Source: a virus
Reading direction: 5' to 3' (one strand)
Length of the DNA stretch: 50,241 bases
IMG/VR virus record: IMGVR_UViG_3300009285_000011
Coordinates: 1-50,241 of that record
In this document: one piece after another, positions 1,585-50,241 of the stretch
Numbering within the stretch: the stretch's first letter is position 1
Layout: each line of letters starts with the position of its first letter
Position numbers and translations under genes: made by a program
Notes under the pieces: generated by a model
Told to the model about the DNA's origin: nothing
Seen by the model: the letters and a program-made list of their open reading frames with translations, nothing else
The model's database searches: none

Positions 1585-2070
1585 TTAGTAGGCTTCTCTG
1601 AGAAACGGAATTTGTAAGGTAAATTCAATGCCAAGTTGCAATGCACCAATACCGCCATTATCGAAAACTACCAATCCGGTGTGCGAGATGAGGCGCGTTA
1701 ATTCCTGTAAATAGTTAGGAACGGTGGTATACGATCCGGCGTTGGTCGTAAGCTGCGGATGTTCGCGGAAATATGTTTCTATCGCTTGGGCATATTGGTA
1801 AGCGAGATCGGCCTTATCTCCGGCGTATCCTGCCGTGACATGATCGACCACAATGCGCATCAGGATCGTGTGATTGTATTGTTCGATGTCTTCCGTAAAA
1901 GCGTCATAATCCGGCGTCATTTCACCTAGACGATTTGTCATGTAGGGTGTGACTTCCTGCTGATACGGCCAATATTTCACCGCATCGAACGCGCCACTCG
2001 TAATCGTCGCCAGTGCCTCGATTTCCATTGCTGCCACACGCGCCATCATATCCTGAATATAACTAGGCAT
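1585..2070 (-). CDS. putative tail terminator / neck protein (positional call)
   Basis: This 161-aa ORF lies just upstream of the tail tube gene and overlaps its neighbour. No motif was recognised. Confidence 0.35.
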   Translation of the reverse strand: MPSYIQDMMARVAAMEIEALATITSGAFDAVKYWPYQQEVTPYMTNRLGEMTPDYDAFTEDIEQYNHTILMRIVVDHVTAGYAGDKADLAYQYAQAIETYFREHPQLTTNAGSYTTVPNYLQELTRLISHTGLVVFDNGGIGALQLGIEFTLQIPFLREAY

Positions 2071-2305
2071 TGTCTACCCCGATATCCCGAAGCGTTTCAA
2101 TGAGGATGCGCGCTTTGGCGTTGACCTGTTCCATGATTGCCATTGACTTTTCCAGTTCTCGAATGCGGCTTTCCATGCGCATGATGTACCGTTCTAGCAT
2201 ATAGATACGCCGCTCTTGGTTGCCTTTGGCGGCGATTTCGACAGTCTGGGGGACATTGGTATAATTATGCACTTCTCGTTCGGTGAATTCTCGAATTTTA
2301 GTCAT
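2063..2305 (-). CDS. hypothetical small coiled-coil protein
   Basis: This 80-aa ORF overlaps the neighbouring ORFs at both ends (8 nt each), consistent with translational coupling. Confidence 0.5.
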   Translation of the reverse strand: MTKIREFTEREVHNYTNVPQTVEIAAKGNQERRIYMLERYIMRMESRIRELEKSMAIMEQVNAKARILIETLRDIGVDNA

Positions 2306-3146
2306 ACATGAAATCCTGTAATGTTCGCCTGAGTTCCATCAATAAATCCTGTGGATAGGTAACTACCCCCACGCCATCTAATGTCTCAACCTGAAATGAG
2401 CCGCGCCGGGCGTAGAGTAAGGCTGCCTGCCGTGTGGCAATACGGCGTATACGCTCATCGACACGGTAGACATTCACATCATCACCTGTCACGTGCGCCG
2501 CCGCTGTCGTGCCATTAACACCGCGCCTTACAGCAGCAGTATTGGCGGTTATATCGGTTGCGGTTACGTCCATGAGTTCTGTGCCGATTAGAATGAGATT
2601 ACCTGCGCTGATGCGCGGCGTGAATCCGTCGAGGTCAGTTCCATTGACATCGACAACCATAATCGAAGTGGCGCTAGCAGTGATATTAGCCGCCAGATCA
2701 TCAACATGGTCATAGGCAGCAGCATACTCTTCATTCCATCCCCACGCGCCTGTGACCTTAACCCATATTGGCGGTGTATCGGTTGAGTTGCCGCATTCCC
2801 ACCATGTTGTGGTGTTATTGGTAATCCGTATCGCCCGCGCCACGCCATTATAAGGCGTGTGAAGTTCGACATTGGCAGTGATGTCTTCATCTGCCCGGAG
2901 CACTGTCGTAATCGCCAGGAGCGCATCGTCGAGAACGAATACATTTTCATAACTGTTGACCCGCATAGATGAAACGGCAAACTTGCGCTGTTCGGTGTAG
3001 GGCGCGAAATAGGGGCGGCGCGATTGCATGGTTCTATCAATGCATCTGCTCACTTGCTGAATGAAACGTCTTACCTGCGCATCGCCAACTGCGCTATCGG
3101 CTTTTAATTCCACCTTTACGTCATCGAGCGTGCAGTAATCGGTCAT
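2298..3146 (-). CDS. head-tail connector/adaptor-like protein (gp6-like N- and C-termini with a large insertion)
   Basis: The N-terminus MTDYCTLDDVKVELKAD..AQVRRFIQQVSRCID resembles gp6-type adaptors. The gene lies in the head-tail joining block. Confidence 0.45.
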   Translation of the reverse strand: MTDYCTLDDVKVELKADSAVGDAQVRRFIQQVSRCIDRTMQSRRPYFAPYTEQRKFAVSSMRVNSYENVFVLDDALLAITTVLRADEDITANVELHTPYNGVARAIRITNNTTTWWECGNSTDTPPIWVKVTGAWGWNEEYAAAYDHVDDLAANITASATSIMVVDVNGTDLDGFTPRISAGNLILIGTELMDVTATDITANTAAVRRGVNGTTAAAHVTGDDVNVYRVDERIRRIATRQAALLYARRGSFQVETLDGVGVVTYPQDLLMELRRTLQDFMYD

Positions 3147-3643
3147 AACGGCGCAACGTCTCCCCAGAGTTTGATAGCCTGTCCCTCGGCCTTAATCGCC
3201 GCAGCAGCAATCAAGTCGCGTGATTTGTACCAGCCAGTATCGGCATGAAATGGCTGCTGCTGTGTTCCGGTCACATAGATTTCTTTGTCCCAGGGGTTAG
3301 ATACGACAATCATTCCGCCACTAACTGTGGCAGTATGCGTGATTTTCCAGCCACGCACAAATTTATGCGTGCGGCGGTAAGGTAAGTTCTTTTCGCGGCG
3401 TAACTTCGCCATGACGAACCGGCGCTGGCGCTCGCTTGCCCACCGTAATGGATAGGATGGTTTGCCCGGTTCGGTTTGCAACTTGACAAGCAGTTGATTG
3501 CCAATCGTCGGGCGTATCCTGGCATTAAACCGCGCACCGGCATGAGTGACGTGGTATTTCACATCATCGAATACTTTCGTATCTGTCGTGATTTCCAGCA
3601 CAATGCCAGGCGCTATTTGCTTGCGGATTGTCTTTTTAGCCAC
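3143..3643 (-). CDS. hypothetical head-completion/structural protein
   Basis: This 166-aa ORF has an ATGA overlap with its downstream neighbour. It is the first gene after the sugar/methyl island. Confidence 0.4.
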   Translation of the reverse strand: MAKKTIRKQIAPGIVLEITTDTKVFDDVKYHVTHAGARFNARIRPTIGNQLLVKLQTEPGKPSYPLRWASERQRRFVMAKLRREKNLPYRRTHKFVRGWKITHTATVSGGMIVVSNPWDKEIYVTGTQQQPFHADTGWYKSRDLIAAAAIKAEGQAIKLWGDVAPL

Positions 3644-3908
3644 GCCACACGACTCCCGTGTAATGCCCTAACATCAATGCCGCGCCGCTCAGAATGAACG
3701 GGTACAGAACGACTCGCGCTTCCGTCTGCCAGATGACGTACACGGCGATAGCAATCCAGATTGACACACAATAAATGCAGGAGAGAAACGCTTTGTACTT
3801 TCCTTCGCGCAGCCGGGAAAATAAACGCGCTGGGCCGTGTTCCAGCGCGATGATATTCGATATTCGCCATGTGGCGAGCGCGAGTAGTAGCAAATCAAAC
3901 GGGGTCAA
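3636..3908 (-). CDS. DUF1360-like integral membrane protein
   Basis: The protein has hydrophobic segments and a WRISNIIALEHGP..LSCIYCVSIW pattern that resembles the DUF1360 signature. Confidence 0.5.
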   Translation of the reverse strand: MTPFDLLLLALATWRISNIIALEHGPARLFSRLREGKYKAFLSCIYCVSIWIAIAVYVIWQTEARVVLYPFILSGAALMLGHYTGVVWRG

Positions 3909-4083
3909 ACTTCAAATCCTCATCTGGTGACTGTTCTATTTCTTCAGGGATTCCAAGTGGAAAATAGAAAGATTCCATTTCTTTTTTTTGAAGTCTCAAT
4001 CCAGCTAATCTGCTTTCCAAGTCACATATTTCATTGTTAATACACTCTAATCTAATAAGCCATATAGGGGTTTCATCAGACAT
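3895..4083 (-). CDS. hypothetical small coiled-coil protein (AT-rich ORF)
   Basis: This 62-aa ORF overlaps both neighbours. It is visibly AT-rich relative to its flanks. Confidence 0.45.
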   Translation of the reverse strand: MSDETPIWLIRLECINNEICDLESRLAGLRLQKKEMESFYFPLGIPEEIEQSPDEDLKFDPV

Positions 4084-5809
4084 TGGCTTTCACTCCTACC
4101 TTCGCCGGAATAATTTCCGTAAACAATTCCTTCACCCGCACATCGAATGTGTGGCGCTTATGAGCAAACCTGTACCCGGCCTGTCGGATCGTTTCGCGCT
4201 CTACCGGATTCGCCATCCAATACTCGATTGCGCTGGGCAAATCTTCCAGACTGTCGAATGCGGCGAAGTGAACGCCCGCTCGCAGTCCGGTGACTTTCAT
4301 CAATTTATTGACCTTCTGATGCAGCATGAATGCACCCGCGCCCAAACCCTCAAACATGCGGTTGCTGACGAAGCCGCTCCCGTCATTGTACTGATTATCG
4401 CCGACACAAATCTTAGCGTTACGCATCAATGCCTGCGATGTAGCGAAATCGTATAGCGTGTCGCCGTCGCCATCCAGCCAACCGCTGCCATAGATGCCGA
4501 CATTGTAAGGCAAACTCTTGAGCAACTTACCCCATTCCTGCCGCCATTCACTGTAGGCATTGGCAAGAAATAGCACATCATGCGCGGGCATATCCGGCAG
4601 AGTGGGGGGCTGCTCGAAGGCGCACTGCCAATAAGCCGCCGGGATACCTAACTTCTCATATTCATCAACCACGTTCAAGTTAACCACCAGCGCCAGATCG
4701 TACCATGCCAGCAAGTCTACCATACCGTTATTGAGTGACACATCCGGCCAATAATCGCCGTTCCAGTTTATACATAGCATAGCCGGGTTATCGCTACGCA
4801 GGTGGTGAATGCAGTCTATCGTAAACTCTTCGGCGCTGTGACATTGTGTAAACAGGATGTCCGGTTTCCATGCCCGCGCCAGCGTCATCACTTCCTGTAA
4901 CACGCTGCCTTTACTACGATGCGTCCTGAGATAATCATATTCGATAACCGTTCCGACACTGCCCAGCGCATCACGCAATCCGCGTTTCTGCTGGAATTGT
5001 GATGGTTTGTGACCCTCGAATATCGGTAAGTAGAGAATACGTACCCGATCATCTAATTCCGGCGCTTTGATGGGTTGGCTGTTGAATACCGCACCGCCTT
5101 TGAACCGCGTGTAATAAATGGCGCTGTCCTCGACGCCGTGCTGCCCGTTGATTTGGCGCATATCATCGCGGCTAATCACATCGTGGATTTTACAGCCCTC
5201 TACTGGATTGATCGTGTAGCCCATTTCCCAGATGCGCGATGACAGGTAGTTATCGCCGCCATAGGTTCGCGCTTTACTCATGAGCCGATCATCCGCGCCC
5301 CACCAGCCCGCCGCCTCGCCTAACCAACGCCGGAACATACCGACCTGCGCGTAAGGGGCGCTGATTTGCGAGCCATCGGCTAACCGCGCCGGGTGTTCCA
5401 TCACCTGATGCTTAGTCCGGTCATAGCGGTTATCAGCGAAGGCAACAGCGCCCGCGCTCGGAGTAGTATCCAGATAGCGCATGGCGATGAGTAAGCTCAC
5501 TGGATGAAAGGTCACATCATCATTTGCCATGACTACATAATCGCCTGTCGCTATTTTCGCGCCGTCACAGAAGGCTTTAATCGCGCCTCGCAATTCGCCA
5601 TGTTCGATGAGCTTCACATCAGACTGTTCTTTACACCATTGAAGCGTGCCATCAGTAGACCCGCCATCCACAATGATGATCTCATATTCCAGACCGCGAT
5701 ACATCTGGTTACGAATGGATATGATGAGGGCTTGCAAAAGACGCAGGCGGTTGTAGGTTCCGGTTACGATACTAAGATGCAAAAGGTTTCCTCCACATAG
5801 CAAGCCCAC
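4076..5809 (-). CDS. two-domain glycosyltransferase (N-terminal GT2/GT-A domain plus C-terminal CgeB/GT1-like GT-B domain)
   Basis: The N-terminal region reads LSIVTGTYNRL..IIIVDGGSTDGT..VVMANDDV. The C-terminal region reads NRMFEGLGAGAFMLHQ..ETIRQAGYRFAHKRHTF. The true start may be TTG at 5780-5782, which follows GGAGG. Confidence 0.8.
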   Translation of the reverse strand: MGLLCGGNLLHLSIVTGTYNRLRLLQALIISIRNQMYRGLEYEIIIVDGGSTDGTLQWCKEQSDVKLIEHGELRGAIKAFCDGAKIATGDYVVMANDDVTFHPVSLLIAMRYLDTTPSAGAVAFADNRYDRTKHQVMEHPARLADGSQISAPYAQVGMFRRWLGEAAGWWGADDRLMSKARTYGGDNYLSSRIWEMGYTINPVEGCKIHDVISRDDMRQINGQHGVEDSAIYYTRFKGGAVFNSQPIKAPELDDRVRILYLPIFEGHKPSQFQQKRGLRDALGSVGTVIEYDYLRTHRSKGSVLQEVMTLARAWKPDILFTQCHSAEEFTIDCIHHLRSDNPAMLCINWNGDYWPDVSLNNGMVDLLAWYDLALVVNLNVVDEYEKLGIPAAYWQCAFEQPPTLPDMPAHDVLFLANAYSEWRQEWGKLLKSLPYNVGIYGSGWLDGDGDTLYDFATSQALMRNAKICVGDNQYNDGSGFVSNRMFEGLGAGAFMLHQKVNKLMKVTGLRAGVHFAAFDSLEDLPSAIEYWMANPVERETIRQAGYRFAHKRHTFDVRVKELFTEIIPAKVGVKANV

Positions 5810-6413
5810 ATAATGCGGGGCTTATTTGATAACTGGTGAATGCGTCGCCGATCACATTCCTGATCCCGGTCTGCACATCAGCCTGCGTGCGCTCATGCTC
5901 ACTGTCGTGGGATACGATCATGCCGCCGGGAGCGCCATACTGATAGAACGCTTTCCAGACGTGTGTGACCATATCCATCTCATGATAAGCATCCTCGAAA
6001 ATAAAATCATAGGGCGGATTATATTTGTAGTTCCAGTCAAATAAATCAGCTTTCACGCTCTCTATAATCTCATGATACCAACCTTCCACTTCCAAACAGG
6101 TAGGCTCTACACCATTATCTATCGTGGTCAATCGCCCTACTCCATTTGTCAATAGCGCCTTTGCGATATGCGCCGTGCTCGTTCCCCAACAGTTACCGAT
6201 TTCCAGGACATTTTTAGGATGCAATGCTCGAACAAGCGCGTAAAGCGCCTGACCCTCAACACCCCAGATACCCTTCTTATATTTGCTAGGATTATCCAGC
6301 GTCGGGAAATGGCCGCCCAGATTATCTTCATAAGCATAAGCAATAAGTTCACTAGCTGATAACCCATAGGTAAGCGCGATGTGAGATAGACATTCTTCGA
6401 GCGTTCCGTTCAT
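5772..6413 (-). CDS. class I SAM-dependent O-methyltransferase (Methyltransf_24 / OMT family 3-like), paralog 1
   Basis: Motifs seen are VLEIGNCWGTSTAHIAKAL..RLTTIDN..FIFEDAYH..GGMIVSHD. The start has an ATGA overlap with the upstream gene. Confidence 0.75.
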   Translation of the reverse strand: MNGTLEECLSHIALTYGLSASELIAYAYEDNLGGHFPTLDNPSKYKKGIWGVEGQALYALVRALHPKNVLEIGNCWGTSTAHIAKALLTNGVGRLTTIDNGVEPTCLEVEGWYHEIIESVKADLFDWNYKYNPPYDFIFEDAYHEMDMVTHVWKAFYQYGAPGGMIVSHDSEHERTQADVQTGIRNVIGDAFTSYQISPALCGLAMWRKPFAS

Positions 6414-7111
6414 TTAACTGCCACCCATCCGGCAAAATTCATCCAACGCCAAAAACAATCAATATGCCGGAAGCCCACCGCCTGTAGAAATTCTTCATTC
6501 ATTCGCGCTGTAACCGGGACTAATACGCCTTCCAATGCCAGCCGCTTGCGTTCAATTTGTTCCCCCGAATAACCGGCATTGCCTTTGGCAGTATAGTAGA
6601 GATCGGCCATGTCCTGATTAAGCCGCGCTGTTGCGCCGAGCACTTTTTCTACCAGAACGAGCGCTCCACCGGGCAGCAGCGAATTGTAGACATCCTGTAT
6701 GACACACTGGCGGTATTCGATAGGGATAAATTGCAGCGTCAGCACCGACAGCACCAGCGTGGCGCGTTCCGGCGGGTAAGCATGGCGCAAGTCAGTGTCG
6801 CGGATAATGACGTTCTCATTCCCAGCAAAGCGCATCTGGGCAGCAAGGCGCATCGGTTCGCTGACTTCGATACCCAGGCATTTATGTGATTTGGAATAGC
6901 AGTTGACGAATGGTTCTATCGCCTGTCCACGCGAACAGCCTAAATCGACGATCCAGCCTTCCTCCTGCACGTAGCGGCGGCCAATGTCATACACCGATTT
7001 ACGCATGACTTCGTACTGAGGAACAGACCGCGCCAACATATCCTCGAACACCTGTGAAACGCTGGTATCGAATGACCACTTGTCGGTAGGATAAATAGTG
7101 TCGCGATTCAT
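6410..7111 (-). CDS. cmoA: CmoA-like carboxy-S-adenosylmethionine synthase homolog
   Basis: The protein resembles E. coli CmoA end to end by eye: WSFD..VFEDMLARSVPQY, VDLGCSRG, LVLSVLTLQFIP..YNSLLPGGALVLVEK, GYSGEQIERKR, and C-terminal WMNFAGWVAVK. I chose the start at ATG 7109-7111 (MNRDT), which makes an ATGA overlap. Confidence 0.7.
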   Translation of the reverse strand: MNRDTIYPTDKWSFDTSVSQVFEDMLARSVPQYEVMRKSVYDIGRRYVQEEGWIVDLGCSRGQAIEPFVNCYSKSHKCLGIEVSEPMRLAAQMRFAGNENVIIRDTDLRHAYPPERATLVLSVLTLQFIPIEYRQCVIQDVYNSLLPGGALVLVEKVLGATARLNQDMADLYYTAKGNAGYSGEQIERKRLALEGVLVPVTARMNEEFLQAVGFRHIDCFWRWMNFAGWVAVK

Positions 7112-7722
7112 ACAGGTTTTCTCCATATCCCCAGACCACACTTTCCCGGCTGTATCAGAAGCGGTAAACCATCAGGCGTCACTCGCGCCATACCTTCTCT
7201 AACTGTTAATCCCACCGATTCATGGACTGCGTCATGGCTAACAATCATTGCGCCCGGTAATGCATTCTCTTTGAAGTCTGCCCACACATGCGCAGTCATC
7301 TCCGCCGTGTGCATTGCATCTTCAAACACAAAATCGACACAACCACTAGGCATCCGATAATCGAAGAGACTGATATTGACCTGTTCAATAATCCCAGCAT
7401 ACCGTTCTGGCACTTTATACATGAATGCGATGTCAATCGAAATGAGTTTACCCTGTTCGTTCCTGAATAGGGCTTCCGCGATATGGTAGGCGCTGCATCC
7501 ATAATAGCTACCCACTTCGATAGCCAGTTTAGGCTTCAATGCCCGGATAAGCGCGTAAATGATTTGCCCTTCAACTTCCCACACACTGCCACATATCCAT
7601 TTCGCATTCGCCGGGTTTTCGTCCCAACCGCCAATGGTATCTTCTTGCACATAAGCGGCGAGTTCGGATTCATTCAGGCCGTAGGCCACAGCGATTTTGT
7701 GCAGGGCTTCAGAGAGGTTCAT
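7108..7722 (-). CDS. class I SAM-dependent O-methyltransferase, paralog 2
   Basis: Motifs seen are AIEVGSYYGCSAYHIAEAL..KLISIDI..FVFEDAMH..GAMIVSHD. The protein is clearly paralogous to 5772-6413 and 7974-8612. Confidence 0.75.
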   Translation of the reverse strand: MNLSEALHKIAVAYGLNESELAAYVQEDTIGGWDENPANAKWICGSVWEVEGQIIYALIRALKPKLAIEVGSYYGCSAYHIAEALFRNEQGKLISIDIAFMYKVPERYAGIIEQVNISLFDYRMPSGCVDFVFEDAMHTAEMTAHVWADFKENALPGAMIVSHDAVHESVGLTVREGMARVTPDGLPLLIQPGKCGLGIWRKPV

Positions 7723-7987
7723 GTATAGCTATCCAGTTAATCAGTGTGGAAAGTTTGGTTGTAGTATAAATCGTCTTGTTACTTTTGTGTTCAACTAACG
7801 ACCAGGATGTCTCATCATTCCCATAAAGCGGATCACTCACGATAATCAGGTATCCATTTTGCATTAAAACATGGCTAACAAAATGTAGCAGTGCCCGTCG
7901 ATCTAGTTTCAAATCTTCGATACCCTGTTGCAATTCCATTATCACGTCTTCTCGAAATGCTAGAATACTAGTCTCAGAGAGATTCAT
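7709..7987 (-). CDS. hypothetical 92-aa protein (AT-rich insert between the methyltransferase paralogs)
   Basis: I chose the start at ATG 7985-7987 (MNLSETS), which follows GGGGAG. The longer track ORF that runs to 8074 would overlap the upstream methyltransferase by 100 nt. Confidence 0.5.
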   Translation of the reverse strand: MNLSETSILAFREDVIMELQQGIEDLKLDRRALLHFVSHVLMQNGYLIIVSDPLYGNDETSWSLVEHKSNKTIYTTTKLSTLINWIAIHEPL

Positions 7988-8612
7988 AGTTCTCCCCGGT
8001 GAACTTGTACATCGAAAGCCCGCACGGTGACGGGTCAGTAACATATATCTTGACCTGATTGAGATTGACGCCACCCTTGCGCATCCCCTCGCGGATATAT
8101 TGCGCCATGCCTGTCGTCACATCATGCGACAGGATATAACCACCGACTTTCAGGATGCGCCGCAAATTCTGGTAAATAACGTGTACCTGAAATTCGCTGT
8201 GATTGCCGTCGTCGAAGATAAAATCAAACGGCACCTGTACCTGCGGAACGTAGAGATTGGCATCCATCCATTGGACAGTGATGTACTCGCGTAGATCATC
8301 AGGAATGCCAGCGCCGCCATTCGGCGTTATATCGACGGTTGTTACATGGCCGCTTTCGTTTTCTTTGCAGGCTGCCGCCAAGTGCGCTGCGCTGCCGCCT
8401 TGATATGTGCCGATTTCCAAAATGCGCTCTGGCTTCAGGACCCGAACGAGCGCATACAAAATACGCCCCTCATTGCCGTAACTAATCCCCTGTTCGTTGC
8501 CTTCATCGAATCCGAGCAGGGTATCTTCTTTGGCGTAACGTTTCAACCACGTCACCGACATGTCGAAATGGTCAGCGATGGCCTTCAATGTGCCAGCAAG
8601 TTGTTGGCTCAT
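7974..8612 (-). CDS. class I SAM-dependent O-methyltransferase, paralog 3
   Basis: Motifs seen are ILEIGTYQGGSAAHLAAAC..HVTTVDI..FIFDDGNH..GGYILSHD. A GGTGA RBS precedes the start. Confidence 0.75.
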   Translation of the reverse strand: MSQQLAGTLKAIADHFDMSVTWLKRYAKEDTLLGFDEGNEQGISYGNEGRILYALVRVLKPERILEIGTYQGGSAAHLAAACKENESGHVTTVDITPNGGAGIPDDLREYITVQWMDANLYVPQVQVPFDFIFDDGNHSEFQVHVIYQNLRRILKVGGYILSHDVTTGMAQYIREGMRKGGVNLNQVKIYVTDPSPCGLSMYKFTGENYESL

Positions 8613-8616
8613 TCAA

Positions 8617-8850
8617 TCACCTTTGGATACGAATTGATCTTGGCAAATTATCGAAAATGTCTTTGGATGTATATCCTACCCATGACCCATGAGAAAATAC
8701 TCGATAATCTCTATGAACATAGGTAGGGTATAACCGATACTGCCATTCCTCAGACTGCTCTTTTGAACAGTCATTCACATTTACATCAGATAATGATTGA
8801 ATGAGAGAGTAATCTAAAAATGTCTCCCATGGATGTCCCGAATAATTCAC
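8617..8850 (-). CDS. hypothetical 77-aa protein (AT-rich)
   Basis: The ORF has an ATGA overlap with its upstream gene. No motif was recognised. Confidence 0.45.
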   Translation of the reverse strand: MNYSGHPWETFLDYSLIQSLSDVNVNDCSKEQSEEWQYRLYPTYVHRDYRVFSHGSWVGYTSKDIFDNLPRSIRIQR

Positions 8851-9608
8851 TCGATTATTTCCTTAGTCCAATAGGGGTGGTTCTGCATAAATGACGGCAA
8901 ATAATCTATCGGTTCTATAGTCTCAGGATTCCAATATTCGCTTCCAATCGGATGGCAGTCCTGTTGGGCATTCGCCAACCATTTATTTTCGCGCCAGCCA
9001 TCATGTCGTAACTGCCCGACATGCCCATGTACTGCCAGCTTGTAATCTAACAGCCATGTCGGGATGGCATAGCCCATATGGTTAATCGGCGCGGTATGTA
9101 GGTAGCCTTCACCTGTTCGCCCTGGTACGATTACGCGCACAGGGTAGGCCGGATCATGCAGCACGGCCCGGCGGAATGACCGCCAGTAATGGATCATATT
9201 CATGCGATAACCCCACTTATCCCCTGCTAGCGCCAATTCAATCACCTCTCGCGCCACGCCCGCCTGCCAGATTTCATCATAATCAAGCACGAGTACCGCT
9301 TCGGCATTCGGGCAAATAGTATGGATGCTATCACGTTGGACGCCTTCCGCCGTCCAGTCGCCGTCGATCCATGCCAGTTTATCCCCCGCTGCTTCGTTGG
9401 CTTGCAGGTAGAGGTTATAGCGTGACTCGCTGTCTGGCAGCGTGTAACCATTTACCCGCGTCCCATGCGACGGCTGCGCGGCGTAGAGGATGAAATACAT
9501 GTCTACAGCGTCGATAATGGAGCGGATAGCATAGGACAAATACGGGGATCCATAATGCAGAGCCGTATAACCGATAATCACGTTACCAGCCTTCCGGTTT
9601 ATCGACAA
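8847..9608 (-). CDS. putative GT-A fold glycosyltransferase
   Basis: This 253-aa protein has a Rossmann-like N-terminus (VIIGYTALHYG) and a DxD-like LVLDYDEIW motif. Its context is the glycosyltransferase island. An alternative GTG start lies at 9581. Confidence 0.4.
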   Translation of the reverse strand: MSINRKAGNVIIGYTALHYGSPYLSYAIRSIIDAVDMYFILYAAQPSHGTRVNGYTLPDSESRYNLYLQANEAAGDKLAWIDGDWTAEGVQRDSIHTICPNAEAVLVLDYDEIWQAGVAREVIELALAGDKWGYRMNMIHYWRSFRRAVLHDPAYPVRVIVPGRTGEGYLHTAPINHMGYAIPTWLLDYKLAVHGHVGQLRHDGWRENKWLANAQQDCHPIGSEYWNPETIEPIDYLPSFMQNHPYWTKEIIE

Positions 9609-9825
9609 GAATAACAGTCATAAAATATTGCGCGCCTTCCTTTTGTGATGATGGCACTTCCCCAGCCCGCCGCCACGCTTCATCTGCTGTCCAGCCATAG
9701 GCCACGATTGCCAATGAATGAAATTCGCGCACAATGAAAAACTCCCGACACAACGGATTATCCTTGATTTGTTGTGGATCAATATCAACCCATGAGCCAT
9801 CCTCTAGCTTTACTGTCTTTGCCAT
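9583..9825 (-). CDS. hypothetical 80-aa protein
   Basis: The ORF start overlaps the TAA of the upstream gene (TAATG). Confidence 0.45.
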   Translation of the reverse strand: MAKTVKLEDGSWVDIDPQQIKDNPLCREFFIVREFHSLAIVAYGWTADEAWRRAGEVPSSQKEGAQYFMTVILVDKPEGW

Positions 9826-10574
9826 TATACATGCGCCTCTACTACTTTATCGAACTGTAGTTCATCACATAACAAATGATGCAGCGCCAGTCCGCGCTCC
9901 TGCAATCGCTCATCACGCAGCGCCAGTTTTACTAATGTGAACATCGTCTCATAACCGCCCTGATAAATGATGTCGGTAAACGGCGCGGTATCCCAACCGT
10001 TCTCGGCAATCAACGGCAGTCCGTAAGCGCCTGCCAATACCGCCCGGAGCGGAGCGATAGCCGGGAACGCCGCCTGCTGATGGATGTGGAGTAGGGCGCG
10101 ACTTTTCATCATAGCCTGTCGCCGCTGTTCGCCCCAACCATTCGGCGCAATCCGGTAGCCGCTTTCCCTCATCCTTCCCAGCAGCCAGCCGCGACGATAA
10201 ATTTCCGCATAGGACAGGTGAATAAAATCGTATTCGGATGGATACTTATCCAGCGTTCCTAATTCCGCCCTACCCCCTAACGGCACGTATCGTGCTCCGA
10301 TGCGCTCGGCGAATGTGCGGTTGCTCGTCCACGTTTCGGCTACTCCAGCCTTCTGTGCGTAATCACCGTACCATTCCAGCAGCCAGAAGATAATCCGGGC
10401 GCGGGGTTTTATCCATGACAGCGATGTATCACAGCCTGTTAGAATATAGGTATGATCGCTATGGATGTCGATTTCATCCTGATAAATGATCGGGTATCCA
10501 CTGAAACGCACCATATCCCAAAAGTCACAATAGGATTGGTATTCATGGCGCGGTTGGGCGAAGATCAGGCTCAT
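9825..10574 (-). CDS. GT-B (GT1/CgeB-like) glycosyltransferase domain protein
   Basis: The C-terminal pattern KSRALLHIHQQAAFPAIAPLRAVLAGAYGLPLIAENGW resembles the nucleotide-sugar binding half of GT1/GT4 enzymes. Confidence 0.5.
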   Translation of the reverse strand: MSLIFAQPRHEYQSYCDFWDMVRFSGYPIIYQDEIDIHSDHTYILTGCDTSLSWIKPRARIIFWLLEWYGDYAQKAGVAETWTSNRTFAERIGARYVPLGGRAELGTLDKYPSEYDFIHLSYAEIYRRGWLLGRMRESGYRIAPNGWGEQRRQAMMKSRALLHIHQQAAFPAIAPLRAVLAGAYGLPLIAENGWDTAPFTDIIYQGGYETMFTLVKLALRDERLQERGLALHHLLCDELQFDKVVEAHV

Positions 10575-10577
10575 AGA

Positions 10578-10808
10578 TTATTCCGAATTATCCCGAATAA
10601 GCGAATAAAAAAATGGCATCCATTGTCCTTTTATAATACCGTCACATAGCCAGTTATCCCCTTCATGAGTCATAAACCATACGTTACCATCCACCGGCTT
10701 GCCTGCTTGTTTTTTCAGGATATACATACGATCAACAGCAATATCCTCAATTGTATATTCTTCTGCTGGGAATCCTTCGACTTCAACTCGGTAAATAGTT
10801 TCACTCAT
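10578..10808 (-). CDS. hypothetical 76-aa protein
   Basis: The ORF has an ATGA overlap with its upstream gene. Confidence 0.45.
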   Translation of the reverse strand: MSETIYRVEVEGFPAEEYTIEDIAVDRMYILKKQAGKPVDGNVWFMTHEGDNWLCDGIIKGQWMPFFYSLIRDNSE

Positions 10809-11809
10809 ACTAATTTCTTTTTTGCAACTCTCATTACCTTTTCGACATCCGGTTTCACGGCGCTGCGGTCAATCCTGATAGGCAGCGGTGGCGGAGTCGG
10901 CATAACACCCGTTTGCCGTAACACCCGCTCGAAACCATCCAGCCCTTCAAACATCGGTGGCATATCGGCTAACAATTCGGGAATGATTTCCCATAACTCC
11001 GGCGAATGTTCAGCATCCCGGATATCTACCCATACGCGGCGCGGCCAACTAAGCCGCGCATAACGCCGCCCGGTCACGCGCCCATATTCCGCGCGATTGC
11101 CCTGCCATTTCGCCATTACCAGCACATCATTCTCCTGGCGCTGGCCTTCGGGAATAAATTCGTCAATTACTGGCGCATCCAGACAACAGCCCATATTGCC
11201 GTCATACCTCCGAAATAGTTCTTGTCGCAATAACTGCGTGCGCCCCGACTCTACGCTGTCTTTGGCGCGCTGCCCATCAATCGAATAATGAACAAGCGGC
11301 TCTTTGAGATGTTGGGCGCAGACCTGCGCGCCTCGTAACTTACAGAATAGATCGGTGTCTTCCATCGCTTCGAGTGTTTCATCGAAGCCATTCGCTTTAC
11401 GCACCGCTTCAGTCGGAAGCAGCGCCGCGATGTGATGCCAGCCCCACTGCGGCGGGCAGTAGGGGCGTTCAGGAGCGCGGATGATTTGTTCATCCTGATA
11501 CCAGTCGGTGTACACGTAGCGACCCTGCTGATAAACTGCCAGACACCGCTCGACAAACGGCGGTTCGATCCAATCATCGGCATCGAGAAACACCACAAAC
11601 GGCGTTTCTACCATATCGAGCAGCCGATTGCGAATGTACCCCGCGCCGAGCAGGTCATCATCATTCATGTAGTAACATTTGCAGGCTGTCGTCTGGGCCT
11701 TAACGCTATCCAGAGCGCGATCTATAATCGACTGATGATAGGGCGCTACCGGAATAAGAATGGAAACGTTAATCATAGTGTCCATCATAATGTGCCTTAT
11801 TCCATGCAA
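10805..11809 (-). CDS. family 2 glycosyltransferase
   Basis: Motifs seen are VSILIPVAPYHQSIIDRALDSV..FVVFLDADDW. The true start is probably an internal ATG (11788 or 11776), because 11809 overlaps the upstream ORF by 41 nt. Confidence 0.75.
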   Translation of the reverse strand: MHGIRHIMMDTMINVSILIPVAPYHQSIIDRALDSVKAQTTACKCYYMNDDDLLGAGYIRNRLLDMVETPFVVFLDADDWIEPPFVERCLAVYQQGRYVYTDWYQDEQIIRAPERPYCPPQWGWHHIAALLPTEAVRKANGFDETLEAMEDTDLFCKLRGAQVCAQHLKEPLVHYSIDGQRAKDSVESGRTQLLRQELFRRYDGNMGCCLDAPVIDEFIPEGQRQENDVLVMAKWQGNRAEYGRVTGRRYARLSWPRRVWVDIRDAEHSPELWEIIPELLADMPPMFEGLDGFERVLRQTGVMPTPPPLPIRIDRSAVKPDVEKVMRVAKKKLV

Positions 11810-12113
11810 TCCAGTTTTCTACTCTCTTTTTATTCTGCTGTTCATAATATTTCCGACTTACGTTGTAAACTGAAGTGCCTTGACGATATATCTTTAGCAG
11901 TCGTGTGCGCAATCTTTGTAAATAAATCCGTTTCAAAAGTGCTACACGAATATCAACGATCCCGTTAGGATCATCATAATAAGCACTTTCTGGAAAGTTG
12001 CTGATTTCTTCTAAATCACATAAATCTATGCGATGCCTTCCCCACCATGTCCCTGAGGCGGGATGAAACATCCGTTCACGCTGCCTTAAAAATCGTTCAT
12101 CAACATCATGCAC
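11769..12113 (-). CDS. hypothetical 114-aa protein (AT-rich, first gene of the island)
   Basis: The ORF follows the post-capsid hairpin and candidate promoter. No motif was recognised. Confidence 0.45.
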   Translation of the reverse strand: MHDVDERFLRQRERMFHPASGTWWGRHRIDLCDLEEISNFPESAYYDDPNGIVDIRVALLKRIYLQRLRTRLLKIYRQGTSVYNVSRKYYEQQNKKRVENWIAWNKAHYDGHYD

Positions 12114-12132
12114 TATTCCTCACTCCCCTGCT

Positions 12133-12166
12133 ATACGGGCGATGGCGATCCTGCCATCGCCCGTAT
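12133..12166 (-). terminator. perfect 14-bp stem hairpin downstream of the major capsid gene
   Basis: ATACGGGCGATGGC, loop gatcct, GCCATCGCCCGTAT. No U-tract follows, so this is an attenuator or terminator-like element. Confidence 0.5.
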
Positions 12167-12168
12167 TC

Positions 12169-12197
12169 ACAATAGCATGTTCGTAGAAAACTGTCAA
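12169..12197 (-). promoter_or_regulatory. candidate sigma70-type promoter TTGACA-N17-TATTGT facing the island
   Basis: The reverse complement of 12169-12197 reads TTGACAgttttctacgaacatgcTATTGT. It sits between the capsid stop and ORF 11769-12113. Confidence 0.4.
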
Positions 12198-12240
12198 TCG
12201 CGCATAATATCTTATGAGAATACTATGCGCACCTAAGTCG

Positions 12241-13656
12241 TTATGTGCGGTAACTTGTGCCGCCATCATAATAGAAACTTCCGCTCGGCAGCGCGTTATG
12301 GATCGGCGCGGCGAACGTGTACTGTAGATTGTCGATACGTCCGGCTAACCAGGGCGTCTCCAGAATGAGGCGCATCTTATTGGCGAACTGATATTCCTTG
12401 CAGAACGCTGTTTCCTCAGCGCCCGACAACCACATACCATTATTCAATGCGATACGCTGCGTTCCGGCGAAGTTATCGAACTCCTGCAAGTATTGGTTAT
12501 CCATTGGGAAGTATTCCAGACGGCATAACGACATTCCCGCCCAACTAACTGGGATGATGTACATATCGCTTTCAAACGTGTTGGCGGCTGGAGTAGTCTG
12601 GGGAATACCTTCGCTGAATACCACTGGCAAAGGCTTGCCATCGACCATGATGTACTGCCCGCTCAGAAATTCGCGGCGCATCCGCCCGACATTTTCGGCG
12701 CTTGTATTAATTTCGTCATACTGCCCGCCGGCGCACTTGTACAGATCGTACTTGCACACGTAGTTTTCAACGAATGTGCGGTACAACTCTTCGCGCATAA
12801 CGGCTACCCACTGGACGCCGACCATTCCCGCCTTACGAGCGCGGTTATTCAGACCATACATCAGATCATGTAATGCCTGTACGATGTCGCGTCCATCGGC
12901 GGTAGTCGTATTGACATTGGCGCTGTAGGTAATGATGGCGCTATCAACAGCCGGACAGGTAAGTTCGGTCACACGATCCGTATACCCAGTTTTGACCTGC
13001 CGATCCAGTCCATCAAACTCTATTGTCCATCCATGCGCAGTTGCAGTATAGGCTGTACCAATATTACCCTGTACAAGTACGACATCAAGCGTCCGCTCAA
13101 ATTCGACACCGATACGCCACAGTTCGTATTGTAACTGCGAGCGGGCATCAGCCAGTTTATAGAAGATGTCGGGAATGAGCGGGTTTTGAGTAGGCCCGGC
13201 ATTCAAGATTTGCGCTGGGATGTCAGCGCGGTTACGTAGCTGCCCAAGCTCAGGAATAGCCTGCAAGTCTGTTTTGATGATATATTTCCCGAACTTGTAA
13301 ATCTGCTGACAGACTTTCGCAGCGCCGACAGCAGGTGGATCGCCGCAGAACCCGGCAGCATTTGTGCCACTTGCTGTCGTGACGCCTGTCATAATTTCGA
13401 GTATCTCTTCAGTGTACTCAGAGCGTGAAACGCCTAATACACCAACCAAACTATCAGGACGAGCGAGGGCGCTAAACCGTTCTGGTCTTACGCCAGGATA
13501 GGTGAATAGCCCATACTGCGTGGTGCTTTCATGATATGGCCCATGCAGCGCGGGGCCAACTAAGGTGGTAGACGCTGGCGTATGCTTGGCAGCAGACGCG
13601 ATCATCTCCGAAATTTCTTTCATTTGTTCTGAGGTATATACAGCTTGAACACCCAT
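12241..13656 (-). CDS. major capsid protein
   Basis: This 471-aa ORF lies directly downstream of the protease and the acidic scaffold. The call is positional, and an HK97 fold is presumed. Confidence 0.7.
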   Translation of the reverse strand: MGVQAVYTSEQMKEISEMIASAAKHTPASTTLVGPALHGPYHESTTQYGLFTYPGVRPERFSALARPDSLVGVLGVSRSEYTEEILEIMTGVTTASGTNAAGFCGDPPAVGAAKVCQQIYKFGKYIIKTDLQAIPELGQLRNRADIPAQILNAGPTQNPLIPDIFYKLADARSQLQYELWRIGVEFERTLDVVLVQGNIGTAYTATAHGWTIEFDGLDRQVKTGYTDRVTELTCPAVDSAIITYSANVNTTTADGRDIVQALHDLMYGLNNRARKAGMVGVQWVAVMREELYRTFVENYVCKYDLYKCAGGQYDEINTSAENVGRMRREFLSGQYIMVDGKPLPVVFSEGIPQTTPAANTFESDMYIIPVSWAGMSLCRLEYFPMDNQYLQEFDNFAGTQRIALNNGMWLSGAEETAFCKEYQFANKMRLILETPWLAGRIDNLQYTFAAPIHNALPSGSFYYDGGTSYRT

Positions 13657-13660
13657 GATT

Positions 13661-14335
13661 TTACTCCTTCAATGGGACGCCAAAGAACGTCTTCTTACCG
13701 TTCGCGCCCTTTTCCAGTTCTTTTTTCAAGTCAGCATTCTCGATAACTGTTTCAGCGGCCTGTGACGCCTGGCGCGGGCGGCTGTTAACTTTAGCCTCTA
13801 AGGCTTTGACCTGCGCCTGGAGCGCATCCACTTTACCAGTTTCTTTCACTAAAGGCGCGAGCGCGGCTACCGTTTGCGCCATCTGGATAATGGCCGGAAT
13901 GAACTCGCCAACATCCTTATAGATAGCTGTCGATTCGGCGGCCATCGCCTTGACCTGCGAAGTCAATTCCATAAAGGCTTCCATCGTCGGTTTCTTTTCC
14001 TCGTCTTCATCTTCCGGCGCTAGTTCCTCTTCCATCATAGTTTCTGGCGCTTCCTCTTCTGGCGCAGGCTCAGCATTCGCTAACTTACCTAGCATAATTG
14101 CCAGCACCTCATCGACAATCGCTTCATCGGGATTGTCGGTCAGTTTGGTTAGCGTCGCCATCAATTCTTCGCGCATATCTTCTAATACGCCCTTGTTTTT
14201 ATGCTCTTTAGTTTCATGGCCGCGCTTCTTGAGAATCTCGGCCACCCGACTTAGCGCCTTTTTGAGTTCATCATCCTGTGACTTACCCAAAATTTTATCC
14301 ATCAACGACAGGCGCTCATTATCTTTTGCACTCAT
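13661..14335 (-). CDS. scaffolding protein
   Basis: The protein is highly acidic and helical (EEEAPETMMEEELAPEDEDEEKK). I chose the start at ATG 14333-14335, which follows GGAGG and lies downstream of the protease stop at 14340. Confidence 0.65.
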   Translation of the reverse strand: MSAKDNERLSLMDKILGKSQDDELKKALSRVAEILKKRGHETKEHKNKGVLEDMREELMATLTKLTDNPDEAIVDEVLAIMLGKLANAEPAPEEEAPETMMEEELAPEDEDEEKKPTMEAFMELTSQVKAMAAESTAIYKDVGEFIPAIIQMAQTVAALAPLVKETGKVDALQAQVKALEAKVNSRPRQASQAAETVIENADLKKELEKGANGKKTFFGVPLKE

Positions 14336-14339
14336 CGGA

Positions 14340-14936
14340 TTAATCCTCCATAACTTGTGCGAAGGTAAACAGATTGGCCGCTCGTGTGAGCGGCAGGATA
14401 GAGGTTTCATTTTTCAGGATGAGTTCATACATTCCATCCTGTCTATCTTCTTTAATGTAATTGAAGCCAATGCTGGCTCCCCATGTGACCGGCGTAGTTT
14501 CCAACGCATCCCATACTGCTTTACGCGAAACCATGTACGGTTCTTCGCCGGAGTGCCGCGCCAAATTAATCATCGCATCGGGTAACTCTCTGGCAACTTC
14601 GACTAGAAATGTGCCATATATTTTGGCCGCCATAATTTCGCCAAGCGGCTCGCCGCCATGCCAGTAAAGTAGCGGGTTCGGGGAAAATATCTTGACATAA
14701 CCTTCTAACGCCTTTTGGCGGACAATTTCTTGCTCGCGATCTTTGTAGCTGTTGGAGCTTATCAGAATCATACGGCGCAATCCGGCCTTACTGCCAAATA
14801 CCAGCGCCAGCGATTTGCCGCGCCGACAGTTCTCATAAGCGATAGCGACAGCTTGATCCTTTGGTTTGCCGGAGCGAATGAGTTCCGCGATATTGGCGCT
14901 AATTGTAGTTTTATCACAACCGGGTTTGAGGGGCAT
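14340..14936 (-). CDS. prohead serine protease (HK97 gp4 / S78-like)
   Basis: [13 protein letters not shown] is a His-type motif and WGASIGFNY is a Ser-type motif. The gene sits between the portal and the scaffold. Confidence 0.6.
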
Positions 14937-14937
14937 G

Positions 14938-15168
14938 TTACTCTCTCTTAAACCTCACAGGCCGTGACACTTCAAATTCCGGCTCAAATTGAATCCCGTG
15001 ATCGCCTTCAAACGGCTCAGTATGGTCATTCTTCATCATGAGAATTTCATCGGGTATACCGTCCGGGAACGCTTCGCAGGTGGGAGTATCTTCATGCTTG
15101 TGCTTGCAATAAGCGCAGGCTGACAGCGCCAGTCCATCTTTTGGAAAACTGAATTTATCATTACTCAT
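14938..15168 (-). CDS. small Cys-rich protein
   Basis: This 76-aa protein has the pattern [18 protein letters not shown]. It overlaps the 3' end of the portal-MuF-ART gene. Confidence 0.5.
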
Positions 15169-17836: not shown

Positions 17837-18124
17837 CTACTTCACCTCGATTTGAATTTCATCAACTAGAATATCGCTGGTGGTAGTGAGTGTGATCGCA
17901 TTAGTAAGTGTATAAGTCACACCGACAGCGCCGCCGCTTATTCGGATGAGCGCCCTTGTGTTGTAGGTATCCACAGAATCGCTTTCCTTAGTAAGACCAG
18001 ATGGGCTAATCACCCAGGCGGATGAGGCTATCGTATCGCCATTGCCATTGTTTTCATTCAGCAATACCTTGTGCCAATCTATAGCGTAGGTTTCTTTAGC
18101 CTCAGTGAACTTCAAAAATTTCAT
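17837..18124 (-). CDS. hypothetical 95-aa beta-rich protein
   Basis: The ORF has an ATGA overlap with the upstream repeat protein. Confidence 0.45.
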   Translation of the reverse strand: MKFLKFTEAKETYAIDWHKVLLNENNGNGDTIASSAWVISPSGLTKESDSVDTYNTRALIRISGGAVGVTYTLTNAITLTTTSDILVDEIQIEVK

Positions 18125-19707: not shown

Positions 19708-19714
19708 CGTTTAC

Positions 19715-20017
19715 CTAGCGGTCATCTTTCCAGTACCGTCCTCCGACTTTACGCCAGACAGTCAACCGCGCTGTGCCGCGAAATACCCGTCGTTTGGGGC
19801 CGGCTTTCATCCGGCGGACAAATTCTTCATCGCTTTTTATCATGCGCGCTGCCAGTTCAATGACACAGCCATCGCTATGCACGAGGTTCTCAGGGCGACT
19901 ACCTTTGCCATCACAAAACCGACATTCGATGATTTGCAACCTGTCATCGGCCACCGCCCAAAAGTATCGATCTTCCTGAAACATCGCTAACAAAACACCG
20001 AGTGGAGTTTCGATCAT
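19715..20017 (-). CDS. hypothetical 100-aa protein
   Basis: The ORF has an ATGA overlap with its upstream gene. It contains a CxxC..C pattern. Confidence 0.45.
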   Translation of the reverse strand: MIETPLGVLLAMFQEDRYFWAVADDRLQIIECRFCDGKGSRPENLVHSDGCVIELAARMIKSDEEFVRRMKAGPKRRVFRGTARLTVWRKVGGRYWKDDR

Positions 20018-20439
20018 GTCATCGTCACATCAAAGTCGCCAATAGCGATCTGGGCAGTATCGCCATCATTGATCGTCTTAGCAACAGTTAAATCGAGCCA
20101 CCCCAGCATATTCCCTGCACCCCATGTACCGCTATCGGTATTGCCACAATATGTGACCGATCCCCAGTTACCGCCGGCAGCTGCCCAGCCCGTAACGGCT
20201 ACGCCATTCGACTTTGCGCCTGCCGCCGCCGCCGGGAAGTTGGTAACATTATTGGTCAAAGATTGGCGGGCATAGCCGTTAGAGTTAGGTACTTCGTTAG
20301 CAGCAGCGCCAGTACTGATATCAGACAGCGCCGCCGTCCATAGACCAAAGTACATGGTCGCCGGCACGCTATATGCCGCATTACCCCATACGTGATCGAG
20401 TAATTCGAGTTCCAAAAAATCAGATAATGATCCTGCCAT
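20014..20439 (-). CDS. hypothetical 141-aa Gly/Ala-rich protein (possibly virion-associated)
   Basis: The ORF lies immediately downstream of TerL. No function was recognised. Confidence 0.4.
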   Translation of the reverse strand: MAGSLSDFLELELLDHVWGNAAYSVPATMYFGLWTAALSDISTGAAANEVPNSNGYARQSLTNNVTNFPAAAAGAKSNGVAVTGWAAAGGNWGSVTYCGNTDSGTWGAGNMLGWLDLTVAKTINDGDTAQIAIGDFDVTMT

Positions 20440-50215: not shown

Positions 50216-50241
50216 CAGAGTGTGACCTTTACAGTATCTTC
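50165..50241. repeat. terminal direct repeat, copy B (identical to 1-77)
   Basis: See copy A. Confidence 0.95.

Follow-up and report, generated by a model that had tools for sequence, protein, structure and literature searches.

A large and variable glycosyltransferase and methyltransferase island beside the capsid gene of an uncultured phage lineage, and its possible role in virion glycosylation

Introduction

What is an 8.5-kb block of sugar- and methyl-transfer genes doing in the middle of a phage structural operon? The question is raised by IMG/VR virus record IMGVR_UViG_3300009285_000011, the whole 50,241 nucleotides of which were analysed and are here called the window. At positions 3636-12113, on the minus strand and directly downstream of the major capsid gene, the window carries an island of glycosyltransferase and methyltransferase genes. 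A preliminary description of the sequence suggested that the island may build a methylated, possibly carboxymethylated, glycan on virion proteins, or alternatively may remodel glycans of the host envelope. To our knowledge, phage-encoded virion glycosylation is documented only in a few actinobacteriophages, with capsid glycans also present in giant algal viruses. Here it is found that the island keeps its place beside the capsid gene across a lineage of uncultured phages while its content changes. With a confidence a little better than even, we take it to be a late-expressed, cytoplasmic module that builds and tailors a glycan on a virion protein, probably the major capsid protein.

Results

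The island lies within the structural operon of a complete genome

Positions 1-77 and 50165-50241 of the window overlap exactly over 77 bp, which marks the window as a complete genome, assembled as a circle, of about 50,164 bp. Its first 23.5 kb or so have all their genes on the minus strand, and the minus-strand structural operon continues over the circular junction into 50215-37311. Within this operon the island is bounded by the following genes:

12241-13656, minus strand: major capsid protein of the HK97 fold (AlphaFold2 model and Foldseek), the upstream boundary
2298-3643, minus strand: two conserved genes of the structural operon, encoding proteins of 166 aa and 282 aa, the downstream boundary

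Between them lie 15 tiling open reading frames (ORFs) in one orientation, counting those of at least 60 aa. The preliminary description had given 17 co-oriented, mostly overlapping ORFs; the shared orientation and the overlaps stand, while the count is corrected to 15. Of the 14 internal junctions, 11 are overlaps and three have gaps of just 3-4 nt; the single real gap is the 127 nt between the capsid gene and the first island ORF. Promoter-like and terminator-like sites in the region 2000-14500 are as frequent as in shuffled sequence, and thus nothing marks the island as a separate transcription unit.

The capsid protein has no match in Pfam, PHROG, PDB sequences or GenBank phages, and its 243 homologs are unnamed metagenomic proteins, mostly from contigs of about 50 kb. 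An AlphaFold2 (AF2) model was built on 30 of these homologs, with a predicted local distance difference test score (pLDDT) of 74.8 and a predicted template modelling score of 0.73. In a Foldseek comparison with the PDB, the top 50 matches were all shell proteins of phages, gene transfer agents or encapsulins, with probability 1.0 throughout, and the best was a phage capsid of the HK97 fold (E 3.4e-11). The modelled fold identifies the product of 12241-13656 as an HK97-type major capsid protein, in agreement with the capsid gene first placed upstream of the island.

Upstream of the capsid gene are the genes of both terminase subunits, small and large, and 15161-17833, of which the N-terminal part is a portal homolog. 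On the other side of the island, homologs of the 166-aa and 282-aa genes are syntenic in related phages, and residues 127-231 of the 282-aa protein give weak PHROG matches to tail or virion proteins; a head-tail joining or connector role for these two genes is presumed from the synteny and from these matches. Searches of PDB sequences and profiles gave nothing usable for the capsid protein, for the proteins labelled A2 and A3, for the 282-aa adaptor candidate or for a 281-aa tube candidate, and so the 'connector' and 'tube' labels of the last two are only presumptive.

Glycosyltransferases of the island

Four proteins of the island were considered in connection with sugar transfer:

10805-11809, minus strand: glycosyltransferase of family 2 (GT2), part of the core (PF00535 30.6 bits, cut-off 23.3)
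9825-10574, minus strand: 249-aa protein of a large family lacking Pfam matches, possibly a divergent CgeB-like (GT-B half) domain
8847-9608, minus strand: glycosyltransferase of the GT-A fold, GT17-like (AF2 model with pLDDT 92.1, and Foldseek)
4076-5809, minus strand: two-domain glycosyltransferase, part of the core, with an N-terminal GT2 domain and a C-terminal CgeB-like Glyco_trans_1_2 domain

In the family alignment of the first of these, an LDADD motif (L75-D79) and the pair E150-D151 are invariant, and there is a conserved C-terminal extension with an invariant CC, Y and D. This GT2 is the candidate for the initiating enzyme. The fusion protein matches PF00535 with 81 bits over residues 13-138 (cut-off 23.3) and PF13524 with 64.2 bits over residues 430-563 (cut-off 25).

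The protein encoded by 8847-9608 matches no Pfam family at E <=0.01, GT17 (PF04724) included, and is assigned by its modelled fold. Among the Foldseek matches in the PDB are SunS, K4CP and SpsA (E about 1e-4), and the best matches in BFVD are proteins named 'GT family 17' (E 7e-9, TM score 0.60-0.66). D109 and D111 form an invariant DxD motif. The family numbers 982 homologs, none of them with a Pfam domain; a separate gene that does score with PF04724 is present in two related phages (L037 and L018 in the numbering used below).

The 249-aa protein encoded by 9825-10574 had no match in sequence searches of Pfam, NCBIfam or the PDB. When shallow in-house profiles were compared by hhalign, it matched the CgeB-like domain at E 0.002 with a probability of 13-15%, against E 0.037-0.9 in four comparisons with families that are unrelated or differ in fold. 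Since two GT2 families verified by Pfam match one another only at E 0.004 by hhalign, this value is only suggestive. An exhaustive search among 1.84 billion representatives recovered 1,671 relatives, many of which are about 600 aa long and carry a GT2 domain N-terminally and the 9825-10574 domain C-terminally. The frequent fusion is evidence of a functional tie to GT2 and not of a particular fold. Together with the family of 8847-9608, it makes up two abundant new families of glycosyltransferase-associated proteins.

Five glycosyltransferase domains had been described at the outset. Four of them are verified by Pfam or by fold, namely the GT2, the GT-A-like protein and both halves of the fusion, while the 'GT-B-like' label of 9825-10574 has no family match behind it. 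No island enzyme has a predicted transmembrane segment.

The island has a fixed position and variable content in related phages

Forty related loci (cited individually as L001 and so on) were fetched by means of the capsid and island proteins and mapped by BLAST; 38 of them bear the capsid gene. Of these 38, 32 carry a GT2 homolog downstream of the capsid gene, and in 19 loci it is the very next gene, 3-206 nt past the capsid stop. Six capsid-bearing loci are without any GT2. Where capsid identity is at least 34%, the island lies between the capsid gene and the 166/282-aa genes in all loci except L002 and L003 (46-48% identity). The adjacency of capsid gene and GT2 persists even where the capsid proteins are as little as 27% identical: in a clade with 27-29% identity, a single GT2 that scores in Pfam (64 bits for the L027 copy) follows the capsid gene, and no other sugar-handling family was seen among the genes scanned downstream of it, up to a tape-measure-like protein.

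In these relatives the island measures from 3.5 kb, in L039, where it consists only of the GT2, the fusion glycosyltransferase and a DUF1360 protein, to 8.6 kb. These same three genes are the fixed core of the island, with homologs of the fusion in 17 related loci. The third core gene of the window is:

3636-3908, minus strand: small membrane protein of 90 aa with about three transmembrane segments (PF07098, DUF1360, 20.9 bits)

It had been called a DUF1360 membrane protein; three hydrophobic segments are indeed present (maximum KD19 2.38), and the family score is marginal, at 20.9 bits against a cut-off of 21. DUF1360-like homologs occur in 11 of the mapped related loci, and in L015 and L019 they adjoin the GT2 instead.

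Around the core the content changes from phage to phage. The variable slots hold genes for Sulfotransfer_3 and weakly scoring Sulfotransfer_2 proteins, an NAD-dependent sugar epimerase/dehydratase, NTP_transf_3, a PIG-L-type de-N-acetylase, a hexapeptide acyltransferase, GT17, FkbM and Methyltransf_24 methyltransferases, and extra GT2 and CgeB-like enzymes, with occasional HNH and Fic genes. In this lineage the core is retained and accessory tailoring genes are swapped.

The HNH endonuclease genes lie between the capsid gene and the GT2, at L008:11542-12204, L011:14420-14890 and L014:11551-12291; the L008 copy is confirmed by Pfam, and the L011 and L014 copies cluster with it by BLAST. The same slot of L011 holds the Fic-domain gene (12771-13991). 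Comparison of L005 with L006, contigs of one abundant relative, reveals an IS605-type insertion at L006:2351-3931, with a Y1 transposase and a TnpB/Cas12f-like OrfB.

Megablast of the island against 50,697 GenBank phage records gave nothing, and tblastn against the same records gave no match for the capsid protein, 8847-9608 or 9825-10574. The two GT2 proteins had remote tblastn matches only (28-41% identity over 14-43% of the query). The G+C content (GC) of the loci runs from 0.42 to 0.63, a range which suggests many different hosts. Capsid homologs L036-L040 come from GTDB metagenome-assembled genomes (MAGs), three of Chloroflexota, one of Bathyarchaeia and one of Thiotrichales, on phage-sized or short contigs; given such contigs and inconsistent taxa, the assignment of a host from MAG bins was dropped. 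One further relative, L035 (ENA ERZ25039533 contig_24880, 1,881,676-1,894,491), sits at the extreme end of a 1.89-Mb long-read contig; it may be a prophage integrated there, which could point to the host, or else the contig was joined in assembly.

Methyltransferases and CmoA

Four further enzymes of the island belong to the chemistry of S-adenosylmethionine (SAM):

7974-8612, minus strand: class I SAM methyltransferase of the Methyltransf_24 family, COMT/CCoAOMT-like (PF13578 69, PF01596 31 and RMNT_CmcI 27 bits)
7108-7722, minus strand: Methyltransf_24 paralog directly upstream of CmoA (PF13578 39 bits)
6410-7141, minus strand: homolog of the carboxy-SAM synthase CmoA (TIGR00740 154.3 bits, positions 12-239 of 239)
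5772-6413, minus strand: Methyltransf_24 paralog directly downstream of CmoA, with a 4-nt overlap (PF13578 45 bits)

With a PF13578 cut-off of 26.3 bits and a mutual identity of 31-43%, the three methyltransferases are paralogs of the O-methyltransferase type, as first described, and fall in its cation-dependent class I group (Methyltransf_24/_3). The two that flank CmoA are each other's closest relatives (43% identical). Weak PDB matches link 7974-8612 to family-3 O-methyltransferases (E 2e-5 to 1e-3) and 5772-6413 to O-methyltransferases (E about 3e-3). The paralog that is kept in relatives is 7974-8612, with homologs in L001, L004 and L019, and from its family scores it is probably a sugar O-methyltransferase. 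Sugars would be the substrate of all three, to judge from RMNT_CmcI scores of 23-27 bits.

The early identification of CmoA is upheld by full-length matches to TIGR00740 and to PDB 1im8 (E 2e-31), with a further match to 4gek (E 9e-28); the TIGR00740 score of 154.3 bits lies below the equivalog trusted cut-off of 193.3. The CmoA gene overlaps one O-methyltransferase paralog by 34 nt and the other by 4 nt. A comparison set was formed from 80 viral contigs with the closest CmoA homologs (45-63% identity). The window protein matches 58 of the 59 columns that are conserved in at least 95% of these 80 phage CmoAs, and on this conservation it looks functional.

The only characterised role of a phage CmoA is to supply carboxy-SAM to CmoX, a homolog of C5-cytosine methyltransferases (C5-MTases) with an SPPC motif that makes 5-carboxymethylcytosine in DNA (PMC12783734). 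In the comparison set, an ORF with xPPC and ENV motifs is present in 51 of the 80 contigs, and 50 of the 70 contigs that extend 1.5 kb or more upstream have an adjacent SPPC+ENV C5-MTase, at a median gap of 4 nt. Methyltransf_24 neighbours were found at none of these 80 other CmoA loci. The complete genome of the window, on the other hand, yielded nothing when six CmoX-like queries were run by tblastn (best E 0.019), and it has no PPC motif within any ORF, no PF00145, no CmoY of the asparagine-synthetase or ligase type and no CmoB partner. Within the lineage, CmoA occurs in only two of about 40 members and at two different positions; the other copy (L001:309-1025, 57% identity) lies outside the island, on an incomplete contig, where it directly precedes the small terminase gene.

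It is an even call whether this CmoA has anything to do with the glycan enzymes at all. It could equally boost cmo5U in host tRNA by way of the host CmoB, or drain SAM, and be a passenger in an island that tolerates insertions. Its rarity and its change of position within the lineage are what would be expected of such a gene; the island also takes in selfish or foreign genes, HNH and Fic among them, and about a third of the well-flanked phage CmoA loci are without a motif-defined CmoX. Set against this is the translational coupling of CmoA, through its two overlaps, to a pair of closely related O-methyltransferase paralogs. Furthermore, enzymes of that class can use its product: wild-type COMT O-carboxymethylates catechols with carboxy-SAM (PMC7496830), which makes carboxymethylation of a glycan chemically plausible. 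The conservation of CmoA and the missing CmoX partner lend some weight to the 'carboxymethylated glycan' of the preliminary description. The specific proposal that the orphan CmoA feeds carboxy-SAM to 7108-7722 or 5772-6413, and that the enzyme so fed would O-carboxymethylate a virion glycan or protein, is decidedly unlikely.

Small ORFs between the enzyme genes

The remaining members of the island are six small ORFs:

11769-12113, minus strand: 114 aa, GC 0.39
10578-10808, minus strand: 76 aa, GC 0.385
9583-9825, minus strand: 80 aa, GC 0.47
8617-8850, minus strand: 77 aa, GC 0.37
7709-8074, minus strand: up to 121 aa, overlapping the upstream gene by 101 nt
3895-4083, minus strand: 62 aa, the lowest GC at 0.354

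None of the six gave a family match, and 11769-12113 has one homolog, in L004 (42% identity). Given the 101-nt overlap, the true start of 7709-8074 is probably later. Five of the six have a GC of 0.35-0.42, the exception being 9583-9825 (0.47), against 0.47-0.53 for the enzyme genes. The low GC of small ORFs recurs in the islands of relatives (mean difference -0.045, Mann-Whitney p 1.6e-6), and these ORFs may have been acquired recently as fillers, or may serve as joints at which recombination shuffles cassettes.

Other genes of the genome

Several genes outside the island were also recorded. The portal homolog (15161-17833, minus strand, 890 aa) has an additional C-terminal ADP-ribosyltransferase domain (PF03496 E 5e-25, residues 716-885). 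The portals of relatives are about 640-790 aa long, and the BLAST alignment covers only about 420-745 residues of the 890 in the window protein. The ADP-ribosyltransferase domain could be an ADP-ribosylating effector that is ejected or packaged.

Between the large terminase and portal genes, four ORFs are inserted at 17837-20439 (minus strand) that have homologs in none of the 40 related loci. One of them encodes a Gp80-like podophage fibre protein (PF23140 E 5e-27). A 528-aa protein (18121-19707) contains about 14-16 copies of a 20-residue repeat, xIAxVTTVxGALTxxHPLAG, visible at the protein level and not at the DNA level.

The replication and tail region, 21700-50241, is almost entirely without Pfam matches. 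The approximately 45 ORFs scanned there included no recognisable endolysin, DNA polymerase, integrase, C5-MTase or member of the thymidylate-synthase family. The early/replication region does encode a pentapeptide-repeat protein (34136-34741, plus strand; PF00805 E 1.4e-35), which might mimic DNA or serve as an anti-defence factor.

Discussion

The enzyme assignments with which this analysis began prove essentially right when judged by Pfam and by fold, and the question becomes what the enzymes act upon. In the following scheme the acceptor, the order of the steps, their chemistry and any benefit are what we infer from the enzyme families, position, conservation and variability described above. 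The GT2 encoded after the capsid gene would add the first sugar, drawn from the nucleotide-sugar pool of the host. Extension and branching of the glycan would then fall to the GT17-like GT-A enzyme, to the fusion of GT2 with the CgeB-like domain and perhaps to 9825-10574, and the three COMT-like methyltransferases would O-methylate its sugars. Finally, CmoA may supply carboxy-SAM, in which case one of the flanking paralogs would transfer a carboxymethyl group instead of a methyl group. With the core kept and the accessory genes swapped, related phages would bear different surface glycans.

Pfam-based scans of the ORFs of the genome found no flippase, polymerase or oligosaccharyltransferase. 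Soluble enzymes together with the lack of export and polymerisation genes fit an acceptor in the cytoplasm. When the position in the late operon and the deep pairing of capsid gene and GT2 are added, a virion protein is favoured as acceptor, and the capsid protein foremost. Another target offered at the start, the repeat protein encoded by 18121-19707, does not hold up; it has no homolog in the 40 related loci, where the island is conserved, and so cannot be the general target of the island.

Several observations weigh against glycosylation of a virion protein. A search for the acceptor site by covariation gave no site. The disordered C-terminal tail of the capsid protein (PGxSxYxxGGxTYR) is conserved in phages with and without the GT2, so that it carries no covariation signal, and it was rejected as acceptor evidence for this reason. 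The conserved core includes a membrane protein, which a purely cytoplasmic glycosylation of protein would not obviously need. The window itself encodes no genes for nucleotide-sugar synthesis. Since six relatives have the capsid gene and lack GT2, the modification would be dispensable for assembly. Apart from the remote GT2 matches, the island enzymes have no detectable homology to those of cultured phages, and the link to the actinobacteriophage enzymes is therefore one of analogy and not of descent. Lastly, the MAG bins are inconsistent and no host can be assigned from GTDB.

The membrane protein is also an argument for a different target. Late in infection the island might remodel an envelope or lipid-linked glycan of the host, with the membrane protein anchoring or assisting the enzymes; this might serve to block superinfection or to keep progeny from adsorbing again to lysing cells. 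A DUF1360-like protein with three transmembrane segments does belong to the conserved core, and genes for GT2, CgeB-like, sulfotransferase, epimerase and acyltransferase enzymes are normal content of bacterial surface-polysaccharide loci. However, every glycosyltransferase of the island is predicted to be soluble, and neither a Wzx, Wzy, ABC-transporter, GtrA/B or initiating phosphoglycosyl-transferase family nor an integrase turned up in the complete genome. A seroconversion module of the Gtr or O-antigen type was not found either, as GtrA/GtrB/GtrC and Wzx/Wzy are missing and the only membrane protein is the 90-aa DUF1360-like one; known modules of this kind, as a matter of general knowledge, adjoin lysogeny genes and not capsid or head-tail genes. 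Remodelling of the envelope would also leave the tight and deep adjacency of capsid gene and GT2 unexplained. We consider it unlikely.

It is very improbable that the island hypermodifies phage DNA, by carboxymethylation of bases through CmoA or, as in 5hmC-glycan systems, by the addition of sugars to modified bases: the usual partnership of phage CmoA with CmoX, the ability of phage glycosyltransferases to glycosylate DNA (bioRxiv 10.1101/2023.12.21.572611) and the position of the L001 CmoA beside the small terminase gene would suit such a role, but this complete genome lacks CmoX, CmoY and any PPC-motif or PF00145 protein, Methyltransf_24 genes accompany CmoA at no other phage locus of the comparison set, the COMT-like fold points to O-methylation of small hydroxyl acceptors and not of bases, and among about 75 ORFs compared with Pfam there was no thymidylate-synthase-family or TET-type enzyme, most replication genes being Pfam-less so that a novel enzyme is possible.

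Glycosylation of a virion protein, by contrast, has precedents. In mycobacteriophage Corndog, an O-methyltransferase and three glycosyltransferases are encoded inside the structural operon, between portal and protease; these enzymes do not occur in the virions, and modification of the capsid was the role proposed for them (PMC4351075). Glycosylation of the capsid and tail tube of mycobacteriophages was later demonstrated (Freeman 2023, as relayed in PMC11600133 and PMC12619734). The cassettes of Corndog (gp35-38), Che8 and Myrna resemble the island in placing glycosyltransferases and an O-methyltransferase inside the structural operon. They differ from it in size, with about four genes as compared with 15 ORFs over 8.5 kb, which agrees with the first impression that the island exceeds the known small cassettes (Corndog has four such genes). 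They differ too in position, which is portal-to-protease there and capsid-to-adaptor here. The content of the island is hypervariable and includes a CmoA homolog here and sulfotransferases in relatives, its enzymes have no detectable sequence homology to those of the mycobacteriophages, no Ser/Thr-rich C-terminal acceptor tail is evident, and the host, so far as one can judge, is no actinobacterium.

More distant parallels can be drawn. In the chlorovirus-type case of PBCV-1, with a machinery that includes A064R, A061L and A111/114R, soluble multi-domain glycosyltransferases and two methyltransferases build the capsid glycan, its terminal sugars are methylated one after another, and glycan variants define antigenic classes (PMC9614988). 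The combination of virus-encoded soluble multi-domain glycosyltransferases with class I SAM methyltransferases is shared with the island; PBCV-1, however, is a giant virus of a eukaryote, its glycans are N-linked, the genes are dispersed and early, and the capsid is not homologous. The spore crust of Bacillus subtilis (CgeB, SpsA, sps) offers the same SpsA-like GT2 and CgeB-like enzyme types, applied to a protein shell whose glycosylation proceeds from the cytoplasm of the very cell making it. CgeB has been proposed, from modelling and a weak in-vitro assay, to O-glycosylate hexameric CgeA (PMC13577073). That system is cellular and its acceptors are unrelated, and in the island the GT2 and CgeB-like domains are fused in one polypeptide.

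With the CmoA-CmoX-CmoY type of Synechococcus phage S-B43, the likeness is confined to CmoA: the window protein shares 45-63% identity with the CmoAs encoded at such loci and retains the conserved residues. CmoX and CmoY are missing here, and CmoA instead has COMT-like O-methyltransferases and glycosyltransferases around it. Bacterial O-antigen and capsule loci share with the island a fixed position, a conserved frame, swappable genes and small inserts of low GC, but not its lack of export and polymerisation genes or its place in a structural operon. By analogy with these precedents, the best reading of the island is as a much larger, hypervariable version of phage-encoded virion glycosylation.

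The island is a far larger cassette than those precedents, fixed in position and variable in composition, and it is standard equipment in a big lineage of uncultured phages, the scale of which is indicated by hundreds of capsid homologs and by two island families with 982 and 1,671 relatives. Should the capsid be the acceptor, environmental phage particles would bear lineage-specific glycans that are methylated, sulfated, acylated and possibly carboxymethylated, and such glycans would evolve like bacterial O-antigens. This would bear on the adsorption and colloidal behaviour of particles, on their decay and grazing, and on the evasion of host sensors of capsid protein. If carboxymethylation were also true, it would be the first natural glycan modification that depends on carboxy-SAM, with a third class of acceptor after tRNA and DNA, and the capsid would gain an acidic, tunable surface, while sulfated glycans in relatives could hide the capsid from grazers or from host immunity that senses it; for such a new use of carboxy-SAM the island offers a concrete test case. 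On this interpretation the island would be a diversifying, serotype-like surface-glycan locus of the virus particle.

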